A stretch of 32,000 bases of DNA from Nitrososphaeraceae archaeon (GTDB taxonomy: Archaea > Thermoproteota > Nitrososphaeria > Nitrososphaerales > Nitrososphaeraceae): contig DATBKT010000014.1 in assembly GCA_036555705.1 (NCBI GenBank), forward strand, positions 2,040-34,039. Reading direction: 5' to 3'. The stretch's first letter is position 1. Every line of letters begins with the position of its first letter. Under the pieces are notes generated by a model, which saw only the letters and a list, made by a program, of their open reading frames with translations, was not told where the DNA came from and made no database searches. Positions 2,961 through 31,663 of this stretch are shown piece by piece. A program made the translations under genes and the position numbers.

Positions 2961-4232
2961 ATGAGTAGTGGCGCAGAAGAATCGACATCGAAAGGCGGCT
3001 ATTATCGACTAATGCTCTATGCGGGGTTATTCGGTGGTCTTTTCTCTCTTATAACTACTGGATACATCACACTCGTTAATCAGGGTATCAAGTTCTTTGG
3101 GCAGCATAGCGTATACCTATTTAACATTAACTTTTGGCCGCTAATCCTGTTGGGTGTATCAGGTGTATTCATTGGTCTTGTAATCAAATTCTTAGGGGAG
3201 CATGGAGGACCAGGAATTGCTCAAATCCAATACGCGCAGACCGGTGGCATCAACTACCGTAACCTCCCAAGTATACTTTTTCAAGGATTTATAGCATTAT
3301 GGAGTGGTGCAGCAGTGGGTCCGGAGGGAACGCTTGTTTTTCTTACTGGTGGATTAGGTACCTTTATTTCTGAACGGCTGAAGCTCCAGAAAGACGATAT
3401 CCAGGTACTAGTGTACAGTGCCATAGCAGGTGCATTTGGTGGTTTCTTTGGATCTCCGATAGTTGGAGCAGTTGGTGCAGTCGAGTACATGTTGATCAAG
3501 GAGCTCAATTGGTATCGTCACTTGATCCCAGGACTCATTGCAGGAGCAGTGGGTTATGGTGTCTACTTTGCGATTTTGCATACGTCATATTTAGGTGTAT
3601 ACGACTTCCCTAACTTCGCAACTTTTCGTGTAGTTGATCTGGTCTGGGCATTGCTGGTGGGAGTTATTGCAGGGGCTATTGGGATTTTGCATAAGCTGAT
3701 ATTTGGTATTATGCATCGGGTCTTTGGCCGATTTAATAAGAGACCTGTCATCCGTCCTATCATAGGTGGCTTAATTATCGGCTTGATTGGTTCATTTCTT
3801 CCACTGACACTTTACTCTGGCCAGAGCCAGTTACTACAAATTGTTCATAATCCGGCTTCATTTGGTATAGGGATACTATTGCTGATGATGTTGGTCAAGA
3901 TGTTACTCACAGGTACATCGTTTGGTACAGGCTTTGTAGGTGGTCCTATCTTTCCGATACTATTTATAGGTGGTACGCTAGGACAGGTTCTATCAGAAGT
4001 TCTAACATTCATTCCGCAAGGCGTGGGTGTACTCGCAGGTATGGCAGCTGCTACGTGTGCTTTCCTCCCAATTCCTCTAACAATAGCCCTCTTACTGGGG
4101 ATCTTTGGAGGACAAATTGACCTTATCCCAGTCATTGTCATAGGAGCAGTGACTGGTTTCATGGTGTCCAAGGCACTCACTCCACTGCTTCCCAAACCTC
4201 GCCCACAGCCGATAGATAAGCCTTCTCGATAG
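2961..4232 (+). CDS. ClC-family anion channel/antiporter (short prokaryotic type, no CBS domains)
   Basis: 423 aa, about 10-12 hydrophobic helices. ClC signature blocks are recognisable: GGPGIAQ (GSGIPE position), GPEGTLVF (GKEGP block with the gating Glu retained) and GGPIFPILFIGGTLG (GxFxP block). Confidence 0.85.
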   Translation: MSSGAEESTSKGGYYRLMLYAGLFGGLFSLITTGYITLVNQGIKFFGQHSVYLFNINFWPLILLGVSGVFIGLVIKFLGEHGGPGIAQIQYAQTGGINYRNLPSILFQGFIALWSGAAVGPEGTLVFLTGGLGTFISERLKLQKDDIQVLVYSAIAGAFGGFFGSPIVGAVGAVEYMLIKELNWYRHLIPGLIAGAVGYGVYFAILHTSYLGVYDFPNFATFRVVDLVWALLVGVIAGAIGILHKLIFGIMHRVFGRFNKRPVIRPIIGGLIIGLIGSFLPLTLYSGQSQLLQIVHNPASFGIGILLLMMLVKMLLTGTSFGTGFVGGPIFPILFIGGTLGQVLSEVLTFIPQGVGVLAGMAAATCAFLPIPLTIALLLGIFGGQIDLIPVIVIGAVTGFMVSKALTPLLPKPRPQPIDKPSR

Positions 4233-5404: not shown

Positions 5405-5917
5405 CCAATTTTAGATTTTCTGCTACTTTATATTATACTGCGGACACAAGGATTGACAACATTAACCCATCTTTTCCTCCACATTGCCTAGTCTATTACA
5501 TTATATTATGATAAAAATGGCTGCAGACAGATTCACCTACTAACACTACTAATATTCACGAGAGAATGTATGCCTCAAATCTGTCATTCTTACGGCGTAT
5601 GTTCGCTTGGCCTCACGATTTTACAAACTTCTCTAGATATTCATGGTAACCTGTTCGATCGATTTAGATTAAATCTGACAACTTTAGAATTAAACATTAC
5701 GTTCGACTTCTAAGAGAATGATGCTTCACCTGAATATGCCTATCCTTATTCATGTCGTGTTACTAGTTTTCAATTTCGGAATTAGTATGAATAAACAACT
5801 ATTGACTACATCTATAGGAATACGTTTCTAGCTTAGAGGCATTACCCTCTAGAGTATTCTCCATATGACAATTACAATTAGAACAAGACTTATTACCGTC
5901 AATACACTTAGGCGACC

Positions 5918-26271: not shown

Positions 26272-27510
26272 TTACAAATAATATTGCTTATGAATATAGC
26301 ACCACTTCCAACATGTGGCTGATAATGCAGCTATCGCCACATGACCTGTTCGTTTAAAGTGTTCAAACGCATGATCTATCTTTGAACTTGCACAGGATAT
26401 ACGATTACATACTAAGCATTTGCGTAAAGATTTTGTTTCTCCGCATTCTTCACAAACAGAATTGTCAATATTAACATTGTTTAGTTGAACATTCGAAAAA
26501 TGCTCGCATGTTAGACGCATTGGTCTTTTAGGTAATTCTGTAGATATGTGATAAACTCCGTTACTACACTTTTCGCAATGTATTTCTGCAACATTCATCT
26601 TGTCTTCATAGATGAACCAATTCGTTTGTATGGGTATAGCATCCTCAAACCCACACTCATTGCAAACACCATAAAGAACTGTGAATGTAGGATCGCCTAT
26701 ATTCAATCGTCGTTTGAGATGCCATACTTCAGGAGGATATTGCTCAAATATTCTATTCTCTAGTTCTGATTTTATGTACGCTAACTGTGAATTTCGAGTC
26801 TGTTCATCTAAACTATAGAATAGTCGAGTCGAGATGTTGTGTAATTTTCTATTTAGTTCTTCATTAACGGAATATTTGGTATTTGGAATTGGAATTATCT
26901 CAATTGCTTTTAACACTGTTCTTATATTAGGGTCATTCTGCAAAATTGATTCTACTAGATCAAAGACAACATCTAATAATCCCTCTTGCTTGTATTGCTC
27001 ATAAAATTTTGATAGAAATTTTGCCTGATGAGAATTACATATCTGCAAGGTAGATTGAATAAGATCATATAGTGTAATGGTATGTTTACGATGTCCAGTA
27101 TCATTCCGTTCAAGTAAGAGTGAAATAAAGTAGCCATCTCCAGCAGTTAAATATAAAGGGATTTGTGCATTAACTTTCGTTGCTCTCACACTTCCTGAGG
27201 ACAATAATCCAAGTTGTATTAGATTATTAATTTTTGCCTCAAGACGATCTCTTATATTTGCAAAGCGTTTAATCTTGGGTATGTTCTTTTCAGATGAACG
27301 CATTTTATCAAGACCATATCTTTTAATCAATTCATCATTGTTTTCTAAAAACCAATAACCCACATCTGTGAGTTTAAATTCCATTTTTCCTGTTTTGATC
27401 GAATATTTCAACAAGTCCTGATAAAACAAAGCATCTTTTGTAAAAGAATTATTGTCGTCTTTTTCAAATATTGATTGAATAGATGGTATTTTCGAACCCG
27501 TTTTTCCCAT
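26272..27510 (-). CDS. Element-encoded protein with a C-terminal ZnF-UBP-type zinc finger preceded by a zinc ribbon; N-terminal region possibly winged-helix
   Basis: 412 aa. The last 60 aa are CEECGETKSLRKCLVCNRISCASSKIDHAFEHFKRTGHVAIAALSATCWKWCYIHKQYYL. This gives C-x2-C-x8-C-x2-C-x4-C-x6-H-x3-H-x5-H-x9-C-x3-C-x2-H, the spacing of ZnF-UBP domains (compare HDAC6 CQDCG..[21 protein letters not shown]..SGHPL....WCYYC). Upstream is a ribbon CNEC-x25-CEKC. Confidence 0.75.
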   Translation of the reverse strand: MGKTGSKIPSIQSIFEKDDNNSFTKDALFYQDLLKYSIKTGKMEFKLTDVGYWFLENNDELIKRYGLDKMRSSEKNIPKIKRFANIRDRLEAKINNLIQLGLLSSGSVRATKVNAQIPLYLTAGDGYFISLLLERNDTGHRKHTITLYDLIQSTLQICNSHQAKFLSKFYEQYKQEGLLDVVFDLVESILQNDPNIRTVLKAIEIIPIPNTKYSVNEELNRKLHNISTRLFYSLDEQTRNSQLAYIKSELENRIFEQYPPEVWHLKRRLNIGDPTFTVLYGVCNECGFEDAIPIQTNWFIYEDKMNVAEIHCEKCSNGVYHISTELPKRPMRLTCEHFSNVQLNNVNIDNSVCEECGETKSLRKCLVCNRISCASSKIDHAFEHFKRTGHVAIAALSATCWKWCYIHKQYYL

Positions 27511-27935: not shown

Positions 27936-30488
27936 ATGTCGTCAGCGTATAGAGATATTGATATCAGTAAAGAGCTATTGCAGTGTGGTGTTACTAAACT
28001 AGGCAGAGAAAATACAAAAATCTCTATGGAATTTCATTTCCCAGCTCATGATGGTCAAGAAATTACCAGAATGGTCATCTTTAATTTAAAACAAGATGGA
28101 TTTTTGGCTACTGTGGAAGAATTTGACAGGCAAGCAAGAGGGGGATGGGGTCATAATAGAAGATTACCTTTGCCTTCAGACATAATTGAGAAAACTAAAA
28201 TAGTTTTTGCAAACAGTACGTATTATCCTAGGGCATTTGAGTATTATGAGCACGACATCGTAAATGAGGAACAACTACGACAAGAGCAGAGTGTTGTTTC
28301 ATTATCAGAACCGACAGAAGGTGTTCAGATGGTAGCAGCAAACGAGGAGGAGCAACGTAAAAAGGAACAGGCATACGCCTCGGCAATATCAGATCCCGAC
28401 TATGATGATGTAAAAAGGAACGAGCGCCTGACACCAATATCAGTAAGCAATGCTATCAGAAAAGATCCAGGCCGGTATTGCGTATATGGTATAATTGATA
28501 CTGTGAGGAAACCGTTCAAATTAATGACAGAGGTTGGTTTCATATGTAGAGATCAAAAATGCACAAGTTACGGTAATCCAAAGTGGCAGATTTTAGACAC
28601 ACCGATATTTTCACTTGACGATATGCCAATTGCATTCAAAGCCGAAAGAGTTGAAAACGGTAAAGTCAAGAAAAACGGACAGCAAAGGTATCTAGAACTT
28701 TTAAGATGTCCATACTGCCAACATACTAGATCAGTAATTCCAAGCAACCATGGACACTTTGATAATGCTAAAATAATTGAATTAAAAAAGTTGGACAGAA
28801 TCACCAAAGTTTCAACCATGATCGCTAATAACACTCTGAACATGGAACGTCTAACTGTTCTGGTAATGGATACTCATACATGGAGTGTCGGATTTGGTGA
28901 GGAGGTCGAAATCATTGGTGATTTGCATATAGTTGGTTCAATGATGTCATCATCTCGTTTTGGTATCGGTTCCAGAAGTGGTGGCGGCTCATCTGATAGT
29001 GGTAAAGCGTATCCAATATTTTATGCTGATCGAATAAATTATACAAAGCGCCACAGGGAGATCGATACTGAAGACTACAATCAACTGATCCGACTGGATG
29101 CTTTTAACAAGTTCGCGTCATATCCAAAACTAATAGAAAGACTGACTTCTATGATGTCTCCCCAAATATATGGGCACGACGATGTTAAACTGGGATTATT
29201 ATTACTTGCAGCAGGGGGTGCACCTATTCAGAAAGATAATCCCAACGTTAGATACTGGATCAATGCTGGACTGTTTGGAGACAAGGGCACCGGAAAGACA
29301 ACTATGGCAGAAGATGCTACCAAACTGATACTAGGAAGCCAGATAGTCTCTGGTCAGCATTCTACGGGTAAAGGAATTGTAGCAGTTGCTGAGAGAGAAA
29401 GTGGGAATGGAACAGGCGCTCTACTACGAGCAGGTGCAGCCACGTTAGCAAATGATGCTATTTGTTTCATAGATGAGTTTGGGACTATGAATTACGAAGA
29501 CCAGAATCAATTCCTGAGTCTTATGGAAAAAGGCTATTTAAATTTTAACAAGCTAGGTATACGACAGAGGATAGATGCAAAGACCAGTTTCATTGTGACT
29601 TCTAATCCAATAGGGGGAGTATGGCAGAATCCAGGCAAGATATCTAAAGGTGATATACCACTAAAGGCTCAGATAATTGACAGGATAGACTTGTTCTTTG
29701 TGTTCAGAGAGCCAAAGACCGATGAGGAGATAGACGCCTTTAAGGAACACAGAAAGAAATTAAGAAGGAAGCACTTTAAGCCGTATTCAATAAACAAGTA
29801 TACTGGCGAGAGAAAGTATCTCGAACAGGATTTTCCATTTCTTAGATATTATCTATACTATATTCGCACACAGAGCGGATTCCGACAGATTGAATTCGAA
29901 GAATCATATCTGGTGGATAGATTAGCAGATCTCTGGAGTGAAATAAAGAAAGCAAGTCCAGACCAGATGACTAGTAGAGGATTCGAATCCATTTACAGAA
30001 TTGCTGAAGCCTTTGCCAGGTTAATGTGTAAGGACGTCATAGATTTAGAAGTTGTAGAATGGACTATCAAATTTGTAATAGAGATGTATCGTAGGTATGG
30101 TGCACAAATAGCTGAAACACCAGATTACCGTACTATTACATATCTTGAAATTGCTAAGATAGTAAAAGCTCATGCCAAAAATATATTCTGGACAGATGAA
30201 CAGGATAACCAACTAGAAGATTTAACGGAGATTGCATTCACTGCAGCTTGTGAAGAGGCTGCATCCAAGAATGAAGTGGTTCGAAATTACTTGGGTGACG
30301 ACTTCAGAAGTAGCTCGAATAAAGCTGCAAGGCATTTGAGAGATATGTTTAGGGAGGAAAGAAGATATGAACATGGTAGAATAAAAGTTGTATCAAGTAA
30401 TAAACATGCAGAGTTCAAGCTAAGATGGGTTCCTATAAATGAAGAGCATACCGATAAGAATAACGAGTGTGACGGTGTGACCGTGTGA
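27936..30488 (+). CDS. mcm: MCM-family (AAA+) replicative helicase of a mobile element
   Basis: 850 aa. N-terminal OB/zinc region with CRDQKC ... CPYCQH. MCM box MSPQIYGHDDVKLGLLLLAAGG. Walker A GLFGDKGTGKTT. Walker B AICFIDEFGTM. Sensor-1 SFIVTSNP. Arg-finger block IIDRIDLFFVF (consensus LLSRFDLIF). C-terminal helical/wH-like tail. Confidence 0.9.
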   Translation: MSSAYRDIDISKELLQCGVTKLGRENTKISMEFHFPAHDGQEITRMVIFNLKQDGFLATVEEFDRQARGGWGHNRRLPLPSDIIEKTKIVFANSTYYPRAFEYYEHDIVNEEQLRQEQSVVSLSEPTEGVQMVAANEEEQRKKEQAYASAISDPDYDDVKRNERLTPISVSNAIRKDPGRYCVYGIIDTVRKPFKLMTEVGFICRDQKCTSYGNPKWQILDTPIFSLDDMPIAFKAERVENGKVKKNGQQRYLELLRCPYCQHTRSVIPSNHGHFDNAKIIELKKLDRITKVSTMIANNTLNMERLTVLVMDTHTWSVGFGEEVEIIGDLHIVGSMMSSSRFGIGSRSGGGSSDSGKAYPIFYADRINYTKRHREIDTEDYNQLIRLDAFNKFASYPKLIERLTSMMSPQIYGHDDVKLGLLLLAAGGAPIQKDNPNVRYWINAGLFGDKGTGKTTMAEDATKLILGSQIVSGQHSTGKGIVAVAERESGNGTGALLRAGAATLANDAICFIDEFGTMNYEDQNQFLSLMEKGYLNFNKLGIRQRIDAKTSFIVTSNPIGGVWQNPGKISKGDIPLKAQIIDRIDLFFVFREPKTDEEIDAFKEHRKKLRRKHFKPYSINKYTGERKYLEQDFPFLRYYLYYIRTQSGFRQIEFEESYLVDRLADLWSEIKKASPDQMTSRGFESIYRIAEAFARLMCKDVIDLEVVEWTIKFVIEMYRRYGAQIAETPDYRTITYLEIAKIVKAHAKNIFWTDEQDNQLEDLTEIAFTAACEEAASKNEVVRNYLGDDFRSSSNKAARHLRDMFREERRYEHGRIKVVSSNKHAEFKLRWVPINEEHTDKNNECDGVTV

Positions 30489-30611
30489 CTATGGTATTTG
30501 TTGATTATGAAGCAAAAAATAGTTCTGATTCTCAAGAGGGAAAGGGCAATAAACAAATATTTTCTGCTATAATAAGAAATGAACCCGGTCACACCGTCAC
30601 ACCGGTCACAC
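30467..30611. repeat. Inverted arrays of a GC-rich heptamer flanking an AT-rich ~100-bp spacer; candidate replication origin or iterons of the element
   Basis: GTGTGAC occurs at 30467, 30475 and 30483 (8-nt period). Its exact reverse complement GTCACAC occurs at 30588, 30596 and 30605. The longest exact inverted match is GACGGTGTGACC (30471-30482) with GGTCACACCGTC (30588-30599). The arrays straddle the MCM stop and PrimPol start. Confidence 0.6.
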
Positions 30612-31663
30612 CTATTTCTCTAGAACACTTCTGTATCAAAGGTCTAGACTTCGTCTTGAATCATTTCCGGAGTTCACTCTGGCCCAGAACTATATCTACC
30701 AAAGCCACGCAAGGAAAGCAGGTTATTGTAAATAGTAGATATCAAGCACTTACATACTTTAAAGCCGCTGGGTATCTGGATTGTAGGATATGTGCCTACC
30801 ATTATTGGAGACCATCAATAATATCGGACTTTGCAGATATCAAAAACCCAATAGTTCCTGACATAATAATGATTGATCTGGATACACACAATTTTAACTA
30901 CGAGCACATAGCAATCAAAGCCGCATTACGAAAGATACTTAAAAGAATCAAAAATCTTTTGAATCTAACTACACCTACAGTTATTTGGTCAGGAAATGGC
31001 TATCATATTTACATTCCAATAAATGTTCCAATAGTATTGGAAGATATAAAGGAGTTCATCAATATCGAACATGTCTCAACTAAATTCTTGAGATTTGCAG
31101 AATGGTATCTATCGTCTGGAATGTCTGACTCTGCACATAATAGCACTGTCTCATTGAATAACTGCATGTTAAGAATTCCTTATTCTTATAACTCTAAGAA
31201 CAACGCTCAAGTTAGGATAATCAAGAAGTGGGACGGCAATAGGTCTAATATCAGCCTGCTTGTTGGTAGTTTCTGTGCATATCTTACAGATAAGAGATTG
31301 AAGGAAGAAGATAGAAGACAACAACTAAAGTATAATTCCAGGAATTTTAGGGAAATGAGTAATAAAGGTGATATTCACTGGATAGAAACACTACTTCTAA
31401 CTCCAATCCATGATTATAGGAAATATGCAATTTGGCGCATCCTGGCACCATATCTGATTAATGTAAAAAGATTGTCTTACGAACAGGCATATAGTATTAT
31501 CAAGCAATGGCTGAAACAATGTAGCAATTTAAGAAGGCTTGATTTTCATCCCGATGTAAGGATAAGAGAAGGTTTGACTGGAGCGTCTCGTGGATACCCT
31601 CCTGTAAGTTATCAGAAATTAAGGGATGAAAATATTATGCTATATGAGACACTGTATACATAA
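30485..31663 (+). CDS. Archaeo-eukaryotic primase superfamily primase-polymerase (PrimPol) with PriCT-like C-terminal domain
   Basis: 392 aa. AEP motif I is IIMIDLDTH (DxD). Motif II is VIWSGNGYHIYIPI (sGxGxH). The motif III region is SDSAHNSTVSLNNCMLRIPYSYNSK. The C-terminal YRKYAIWRILAPYLINVKRLSYEQAYSIIKQWLKQC resembles PriCT. Start is GTG 30485, overlapping the MCM stop by 4 nt, or ATG 30491. Confidence 0.8.
   Translation: MTMVFVDYEAKNSSDSQEGKGNKQIFSAIIRNEPGHTVTPVTPISLEHFCIKGLDFVLNHFRSSLWPRTISTKATQGKQVIVNSRYQALTYFKAAGYLDCRICAYHYWRPSIISDFADIKNPIVPDIIMIDLDTHNFNYEHIAIKAALRKILKRIKNLLNLTTPTVIWSGNGYHIYIPINVPIVLEDIKEFINIEHVSTKFLRFAEWYLSSGMSDSAHNSTVSLNNCMLRIPYSYNSKNNAQVRIIKKWDGNRSNISLLVGSFCAYLTDKRLKEEDRRQQLKYNSRNFREMSNKGDIHWIETLLLTPIHDYRKYAIWRILAPYLINVKRLSYEQAYSIIKQWLKQCSNLRRLDFHPDVRIREGLTGASRGYPPVSYQKLRDENIMLYETLYT

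Follow-up and report, generated by a model that had tools for sequence, protein, structure and literature searches.

At the junction of two replication genes in a 32,000-nt stretch of Nitrososphaeraceae archaeon DNA (the window, to whose positions all coordinates without a locus number refer), one encoding an MCM-family helicase and the other a PrimPol-like primase, we identified a 145-bp module of inverted short repeats (30467–30611). We interpret this module, with a probability of roughly 0.55, as the cis-acting replication origin of a cryptic mobile element of a soil ammonia-oxidising Nitrososphaeraceae archaeon, which carries its own MCM and PrimPol, judging from its position and from analogy with experimentally characterised origins. 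What appears to be new here is that an archaeal MCM/PrimPol element would carry an origin design resembling that of the Staphylococcus aureus pathogenicity islands (SaPIs), with coding sequence overprinted on it.

The module consists of three copies of GTGTGAC on the plus strand (30467, 30475 and 30483) and three of the reverse complement GTCACAC (30588, 30596 and 30605), as a preliminary description of this DNA had reported. These six are the only heptamer matches on either strand of the 32 kb, and all fall within the 145 bp; dinucleotide shuffles of the window gave about two matches, scattered. The six repeats are therefore not a chance feature. The inverted repeat at their core, first given as 12 bp, is indeed perfect and extends to 16 bp (GTGTGACGGTGTGACC, 30467–30482; GGTCACACCGTCACAC, 30587–30602). 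With 61–62.5% GC, the arrays rank in the top 1% of all 24-mers in the window, in agreement with their description as the most GC-rich short blocks. The spacer between them had been called strongly AT-rich. It is AT-rich (30.6% GC, compared with 36% for the window and 38% for the flanks), but not strongly so, as it lies in the 19th percentile of all 98-nt windows (the 4th percentile among those within the two genes). Two inner spacer motifs (Table 1) pair with each other in the predicted fold.

For comparison, we assembled loci encoding relatives of the PrimPol (43 from genomes and 80 from metagenomes, plus several by exact protein look-up), which are denoted here by L numbers. All named loci are from Nitrososphaerales, except for one contig binned as Streptosporangiaceae. 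The same layout was found in 23 related loci: about three short tandem repeats (period 8–9), a spacer of 64–182 nt (lengths cluster near 98, 107 and 157 nt) and about three inverted copies. The repeats fall into at least 11 classes (GTGTGAC, TGAGCAC, those listed in Table 2 and others), and in every class both arms change together. Across the 23 loci, the consensus 7-mer of a left array occurs (with at most one mismatch) 2.8 times in its own right arm; the corresponding figure for right arms from other loci is 0.64. The inverted repeat of L012 is perfect over 25 bp, including the nucleotides between units. Upstream regions of PrimPol genes contained at least five copies in both orientations in 17/95 cases, compared with 5/473 control windows from the same loci, and inverted repeats with a gap of 30–260 nt and a score of at least 14 in 18/95 cases, compared with 6/473 controls. 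The preliminary description had named homologous MCM–PrimPol elements as the place where its proposal could fail; there, the arrays are kept, and where their sequences differ they differ concordantly in both arms.

The position of the module is likewise constant. Two unrelated classes of helicase lie upstream of PrimPol, either MCM or a P-loop protein of 650–700 aa, and in more than 20 relatives, MCM and P-loop classes alike, the left array begins no more than about 25 nt from where helicase homology ends, which places the module shortly before the PrimPol core. The P-loop protein replaces MCM in L012 (2010–3968), L009 (1899–4004) and about 20 others (hereafter P-loop loci). It carries Walker A (GMPESGKS) and Walker B (CEDEAD) motifs, had no match in Pfam, PHROG, NCBIfam or PDB sequences, and may represent an undescribed helicase family.

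In the window, the module is written into both genes. The left array forms the last seven codons of MCM (ECDGVTV, followed by the TGA stop) and the right array is read by the next open reading frame (ORF) as PGHTVTPVTP, both as originally noted. The in-frame start codons available to PrimPol are GTG 30485, ATG 30491 and then only TTG 30656. A start at the last of these had been suggested, which would have made the module intergenic. However, TTG 30656 is codon 56 and encodes an invariant leucine (L56) that follows conserved G51, L52 and I55 in an alignment of 22 homologues, and a start downstream of these residues is ruled out. The PrimPol start is therefore 30491 (or 30485), which places the whole module inside ORFs in this window: the MCM C-terminus and PrimPol codons 1–40 overprint it. 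The original proposal of a cis-acting nucleic-acid element of inverted short repeats embedded in coding sequence is supported. The PrimPol segment ahead of the right array is hypervariable among homologues in both length (0–50 aa) and sequence. A fusion of MCM and PrimPol by −1 frameshifting or readthrough was also considered and rejected, as the heptamer is not slippery and the MCM frame meets a stop about 30 codons on.

Whether the module is translated differs between lineages. It is fully coding in the window, L001, L129 and most P-loop loci; in the latter, one frame is open over 160–230 nt and the other frames carry 2–15 stops. In the close relatives L045 and L131 it is mostly non-coding, with a PrimPol start 12–33 nt before the right array and stops in the spacer. 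In L052 it is intergenic by the assigned boundaries (MCM stop 3261, PrimPol ATG 3471), yet a 61-codon ORF spans it. Protein-level selection as the cause of the arrays is excluded, because it could not maintain reverse-complement copies and because the coding status of the module varies. Two motifs in the spacer of the GTGTGAC family, AGCAGAAAAATAATTCT and AAATTTCTGCTACAG, are inverted copies of one another. Their reading frame in the window is not that in L129, and in L045 and L131 they are non-coding; they are therefore conserved at the DNA level. In the right array, third-codon synonymous sites are invariant inside the heptamers and variable between them (10 instances from 9 loci), although this adds little independent weight, since the instances were chosen by a pattern that already fixes most heptamer positions. 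The helicase stop in relatives falls before, inside or after the arrays, so the MCM stop is incidental to the left array. The TGA triplets of that array (30470, 30478 and 30486) occupy all three reading frames, such that its 8-nt period stops translation in every forward frame; for the same reason, this is probably incidental too.

The way in which the repeats vary resembles iterons. Units are identical within an arm, which indicates concerted evolution, and where a unit deviates, its counterpart in the other arm does not change to match (L047, L052, L129, L128, L116 and L095). Among 20 arm mismatches tallied by hand from the table of relatives, 6 were G.T, 9 were A.C and 5 were other, with no excess of G.U on the sense strand, and within the close family double changes occurred at 3/15 predicted pairs. 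Unit homogeneity, uncompensated deviants and the mismatch split together are iteron-like and not stem-like. The 171-nt module region does fold far better than its shuffles (RNA −58.3 kcal/mol, z −6.9; DNA z −6.5), and when folded as DNA the module reached z ≤ −4 in 11/18 loci. The spacer alone gave z near 0 in most loci, and the inner spacer pairing of the window is partly conserved in relatives as AGCAGAAAAAT / ATTTTCTGCT motifs. A hairpin or cruciform may thus form, while the overall pattern is that expected of iterons read by a protein. The module is a conserved, co-varying iteron module at the DNA level, and we infer that its iterons bind protein, because the layout recurs, the arms change together, deviants are uncompensated, there is no G.U bias, coding status varies and the spacer motifs are independent of frame.

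If the module is an origin, its six 7-bp iterons, three per side in opposed directions, would be bound sequence-specifically by an element-encoded protein. The most probable binder would be the C-terminal domain, predicted to be winged-helix-like, of the helicase encoded by the gene that terminates within the left array. With a helicase assembly formed at each array, the spacer of about 100 bp between the two would be opened, and PrimPol would prime the exposed strands, leading to bidirectional replication without Orc1/Cdc6. Such an origin would sit in the variable linker between the helicase and PrimPol genes, translated or not according to lineage. Candidates for the reader are the helicase C-terminal domain, the PriX domain of PrimPol and small DNA-binding proteins. 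For the first, an AlphaFold2 model of MCM residues 735–842 (pLDDT 76, pTM 0.67) has the topology H-b-H-H-H-b-b, and its third main helix, KAARHLRDMFR, is the putative recognition helix. We also considered a residue code in this helix, pairing NxAARHL with GTGTGAC, but this is broken by L131, which has NKPARHL with GTGTGAC arrays. The two loci with CTGTAC repeats have SKPTRHL and SRSARNL at the helix.

The closest known design is, by analogy, that of the SaPIs and related phage-inducible chromosomal islands (PICIs) of Gram-negative bacteria, followed by the stem-loop origin of pRN1. In SaPIs/PICIs, the rep helicase gene is followed directly at its 3′ end by 6–12 short iterons, split equally between the two sides of a central region and oppositely oriented; Rep is an SF3 or MCM-like helicase whose C-terminal winged helix reads the iterons, it self-loads as two hexamers, and a primase gene is adjacent (PMC9371898, PMC6092414, PMC7581432). 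The module shares with these its place directly at the helicase 3′ end, its 3 + 3 short iterons in opposed halves around a spacer, the adjoining primase gene and a repeat sequence specific to the element, matching between arms within a locus; the helicase in the window is also an MCM. It differs in its archaeal host, in an AEP/PriX-type and not bacterial-type primase, in gene order (helicase-ori-primase as opposed to pri-rep-ori), in its overlap with coding sequence, in iteron length (7–9 nt versus 5–6 nt), in a central region that is not consistently AT-rich, and in that the C-terminal domain of its helicase is a candidate iteron reader, with a predicted winged helix. The comparison is one of layout. 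Tentatively, Nitrososphaerales elements may use origins of SaPI design, in which MCM (or, in sister elements, the P-loop helicase) would recognise its own iterons, self-load without Orc1/Cdc6 and hand the DNA to a PriX-type PrimPol.

The closest archaeal precedent is pRN1 of Sulfolobus. There, the intergenic region downstream of the fused PrimPol-helicase gene (ORF904, PrimPol-SF3) holds the origin, a roughly 100-nt inverted repeat (21-nt stem, 58-nt loop); experiments have shown that replication requires it, and it varies in sequence while keeping its dyad symmetry, and according to the authors has no iterons (PMC4234260). Here too, PrimPol and helicase genes of an archaeon have beside them a roughly 100-nt inverted repeat that could form a stem-loop and that keeps its dyad as its sequence diverges; our arms co-vary as whole motifs, but single deviant units are uncompensated. 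Unlike in pRN1, the arms are built of three tandem units, primase and helicase come as two proteins, MCM is the helicase and the module overlaps ORFs. Embedding of an origin in the coding sequence of a replication protein is familiar from phage lambda, whose ori lies within the O gene, in the part encoding an inter-domain linker, and comprises four direct 19-bp iterons bound by the O protein N-terminus, with an AT-rich region to one side. The candidate origin resembles it in lying in a linker-coding part, whereas symmetry, unit size and proteins differ. The preliminary description had instead favoured the origin recognition boxes (ORB/mini-ORB) of archaeal chromosomal origins. These are also inverted boxes around a region to be opened, but ORB sequences are conserved and 20–36 bp long, as opposed to tandem triplets of 7 nt whose motif differs between close relatives, and a Pfam scan of element ORFs (a subset of those in the window) gave no Orc1/Cdc6 domain. 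The ORB model does not fit; the design matches the SaPI/PICI iteron origins and that of pRN1 instead.

We know of no described replication origin for thaumarchaeal mobile elements, or of a reported genetic system for ammonia-oxidising archaea. A survey of thaumarchaeal integrated elements lists elements encoding MCM and PrimPol and mentions no origin of replication (PMC6563490). If the module is an origin, then with its two genes it would constitute a minimal replicon for ammonia-oxidising archaea, and these roughly 150 bp with the cognate helicase and primase would be a natural start for a shuttle vector in soil ammonia oxidisers. An origin of SaPI design would also mean that an initiation design is convergent or shared between bacterial satellites and archaeal elements, and a sequence-specific, self-loading MCM would be the archaeal counterpart of the initiators SaPI Rep, SV40 T-antigen and papillomavirus E1. 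The naturally swapped iteron specificities would offer a ready set for mapping DNA recognition by the reader protein, and the module illustrates clearly how two reading frames can overprint a DNA signal.

Several observations weigh against the origin reading. As the loci were gathered with PrimPol as the query, part of their association with PrimPol reflects the sampling. Under the criteria used, the triple-array form is absent from about 80% of PrimPol loci, many of which have nothing detectable, and it therefore characterises a subset of them; some carry one long inverted repeat in place of arrays (for example, AGCCGTAAGAATTTTCCCCCC / GGGGGGATTTTTCTTACGGCT in L051). GC content of the spacer in relatives ranges from 0.23 to 0.50, compared with about 0.40 in the flanks, with no consistent drop. 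Since AT-richness is modest in the window and not conserved in relatives, a dedicated unwinding element is not evident. For the proposed reader, a Foldseek search with the MCM C-terminal model gave no significant match (the best were the winged helices of forkhead, MukE and RPC34, at E ≥ 0.6), and there was no clean covariation between residues of this domain and the iterons across loci, in an alignment whose depth was limited by word-indexed searches with MCM fragments that returned 5 and 11 matches. No integrase (Pfam), flanking direct or att repeats, or circular form was found for the element in the window, whose autonomous replication is thus itself putative. Finally, because a repeat period of 8–9 bp is typical of small regulators of the ribbon-helix-helix (RHH) or AbrB type, the binder could be a repressor or a partition protein.

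This last point leads to the alternative in which the arrays are operator or centromere-like sites, through which a small element protein (the 60-aa MazE/AbrB-like protein or one of the RHH type) would bind cooperatively and repress the replication genes or partition the element; replication would then start elsewhere. Tandem sites with a period of 7–9 bp are typical for such binders, as in the 8-bp boxes of MetJ and the 7-bp heptads of omega. The MazE/AbrB-like ORF is just upstream of the MCM gene, small ORFs precede the helicase in L009 and L012 as well, although these have no recognisable family, and the concerted evolution of the sites would suit any specific binder. However, the sites are at the helicase 3′ end within an operon and not at a promoter, and this position is constant over two unrelated helicase classes. 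There was also no sigma-70-type promoter-like signal, which is weak evidence as the scan does not cover archaeal promoters. We therefore consider this explanation unlikely.

A second alternative retains the origin and changes its reader: the arrays would be paired single-strand initiation sites, one per strand, recognised by the PriX-like bundle of PrimPol. PrimPol is the only protein common to all loci, though it was also the search query, and it carries the PriX helical bundle. In addition, the window heptamer, read 5′ to 3′, points inward on both strands, such that primers would extend outward. There are parallels in characterised systems. At oriV of RSF1010, the AEP-fold primase RepB′, which has a helical bundle, primes on two inverted signals on opposite strands (ssiA and ssiB), and the pRN1 primase starts at GTG (PMC8567376, PMC4234260). 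Yet ssiA and ssiB are 40-nt hairpins, and RSF1010 has separate iterons that bind RepC, whereas ours are heptamer arrays; the parallel is a possible one if PrimPol is the reader. GTG is absent from most motif classes and GTG motifs are dispensable in the pRN1 origin (PMC4234260), and priming would not need three tandem copies per strand. On balance, we find sites read by PrimPol quite unlikely.

The preliminary description had also raised an RNA-level function, in which the two arms form a long-range stem in the mRNA that brings the MCM stop to the PrimPol coding region and couples or attenuates translation. The strong predicted fold and, in MCM lineages, the overlap of the left array with the MCM stop and PrimPol start are compatible with such a stem. 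Against it, a stem does not require triple internal repetition, and the uncompensated deviants and the lack of G.U excess described above also count against it. The geometry is also poorly suited: most P-loop loci have the two arms within the helicase ORF and the right array 25–390 nt upstream of the PrimPol core, and the distance is 230–390 nt in some loci. In L008 and L025 the arrays lie about 345 nt upstream, beyond intervening sequence. In most loci the spacer by itself lacks structure, and Rfam gave no match in the window at the gathering threshold or in 30300–30800 at E ≤ 1. Scans for tRNAs and for promoters and terminators found nothing. With no specific support for it, we regard the RNA stem as improbable.

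That the repeats are a by-product without function at the DNA level (linker peptide repeats, replication slippage, or remains of an inverted duplication, a miniature inverted-repeat transposable element (MITE) or an invertible segment) is very improbable: the 9-nt, in-frame period of P-loop loci does yield tripeptide repeats and L002 does show rearrangements at the arrays, but protein selection does not keep reverse-complement copies, arrays persist in intergenic settings, the period in the window is 8 nt, the arms co-vary over all of the motif classes and their position is fixed relative to two genes. Of the specific forms, a MITE insertion was rejected for this fixed position and because the MCM–PrimPol fusion in L002 keeps one array, unlike an empty MITE site, and an inversion switch because the spacer has the same orientation in all relatives.

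Table 1. Features at and around the helicase–PrimPol junction (window positions).
Feature	Position	Strand	Description
MazE/AbrB-like ORF, small, 60 aa	27570–27752	+	Pfam MazE_antitoxin (2.5e-05); upstream of the MCM gene
MCM-family helicase gene, 850 aa	27936–30488	+	Pfam MCM (1.9e-39) plus MCM_lid; NCBIfam MCM
MCM C-terminal domain, aa 735–842	30138–30461	+	Predicted winged-helix-like fold; candidate iteron reader
Left iteron array	30467–30489	+	GTGTGAC x3, period 8 and 8; kept in relatives L001, L045, L047, L052 and L131
MCM stop codon TGA	30486–30488	+	Within the third heptamer
Spacer	30490–30587		98 nt; encodes PrimPol residues 1–32 in the window
PrimPol-like gene, 390 aa	30491–31663	+	AEP-like core and C-terminal PriX helical bundle; start ATG 30491 (or GTG 30485)
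Inner spacer motif AGCAAAAAATAGTTCT	30511–30526		Family consensus AGCAGAAAAATAATTCT, from the alignment of relatives
Inner spacer motif ATATTTTCTGCT	30557–30568		Approximate inverted copy of the motif at 30511
Right iteron array	30588–30611	+	GTCACAC x3, period 8 and 9; encodes GHTVTPVTP

Table 2. Repeat units of the left and right arrays in related loci.
Loci	Left	Right
L129, L133	GTATGAC	GTCATAC
L128	GTGCGAC	GTCGCAC
L127, L132	CTGTACC	GGTACAG
L069, L072	AGTGACC	GGTCAC
L012, L116	TGAGTCG	CGACTCA
L022	TGGGGCG	CGCCCCA
L107	TGGGACG	CGTCCCA
L083, L095	GCCGTTC	GAACGGC
L008, L025	CCCGCA	TGCGGG

The PriX domain of the 390-aa protein (aa 294–390) was identified by Pfam (7.3e-07), NCBIfam (4.2e-14) and similarity to PDB entries 4wyh and 5of3. 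Residues 115–190 weakly match the LigD polymerase domain (AEP), and DxD and SGxGYH columns are invariant in the N-terminal core of the homologue alignment. In the absence of a strong profile match, "PrimPol-like" appears to be a reasonable label.

MCM and PrimPol lie within a block of mobile-element-like genes that also includes those for a zf-UBP protein and the 60-aa MazE/AbrB-like protein, Vsr/DUF559-like and PD-(D/E)XK nucleases and several unknown ORFs. Other neighbouring genes encode a multicopper oxidase, a ZIP transporter and a CHRD protein, in keeping with a Nitrososphaeraceae host. A search of IMG/VR proteins for relatives found none. Just upstream of the replication genes, on the minus strand (26272–27510), is a gene whose 412-aa product has a zf-UBP zinc finger (Pfam 4.1e-07) at its C-terminus, a domain that is unusual for an archaeal mobile element. 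On the contig of the window, about 4.4 kb past the window end (L124:15933–15984), a 26-nt AT-rich unit, CTATAATATTTAATCATCTTCACCTA, is perfectly duplicated in tandem; this duplication is intergenic and lies toward the distal end of the element-like gene block.

Some of the relatives showed further variations on the module. In L002, a Nitrososphaerales metagenome-assembled genome, MCM runs in frame into PrimPol via a lone right array (3999–4022), with the left array and spacer absent. About 420 nt downstream of this PrimPol gene is a complete second module (5464–5654; GTGTGAC, GTATGAC, GTGTGAC, then GTCACAC x3), followed by the decayed 5′ remnant of another PrimPol gene. This arrangement suggests tandem elements or recombination at the arrays; L002 is a long-read assembly in which MCM is split across frames. 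The CTGTAC-type loci have two left arrays about 90 nt apart and one right array (L127:3858–3882 and 3946–3970; L132:2044–2070 and 2141–2167), and each of the doubled left arrays is followed by a short G-rich/C-rich palindrome. Many MCM-type loci have a G-rich patch (for example, GGGGGTATAGGGGGTATG) just after the left array (L128:3986–4003, L129:4007–4020, L047 and L052), sometimes mirrored by a C-run ahead of the right array. The patch, weak in the window (GACTATGG), may act as a Shine-Dalgarno-like signal for PrimPol or extend the dyad. The loci with a single long inverted repeat (L051:3332–3491, L055, L076:3314–3468, L027:3738–3928, L032:3832–3973 and L049) share the theme ..AAGAAAATTTTCCCCC ... 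GGGGGAAAAATTCTT.. around approximately 80–140 nt. The contig binned as Streptosporangiaceae (L025, JBAUAR010000301.1) is 1.7 kb long and carries PrimPol and a CCCGCA/TGCGGGG module nearly identical to that of the Nitrososphaeraceae locus L008, and its label probably reflects mis-binning.

Triple GTGTGAC arrays, mostly with a period of 9, were also present in 94 IMG/VR contigs (L134–L227), about 23 of which have inverted GTCACAC arrays at most 300 nt away as well. None of the 94 encodes MCM, PrimPol or the P-loop helicase, and they are unrelated elements. In one (L163:520–647, IMGVR_UViG_3300038696_000506), three copies each of GGGTGTGAC and GTCACACCC surround a T-rich intergenic spacer of 75 nt; with a V20-type capsid and an rve integrase, this contig looks like a virophage or polinton-like virus. 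The same design, with the same heptamer, therefore occurs in unrelated elements.

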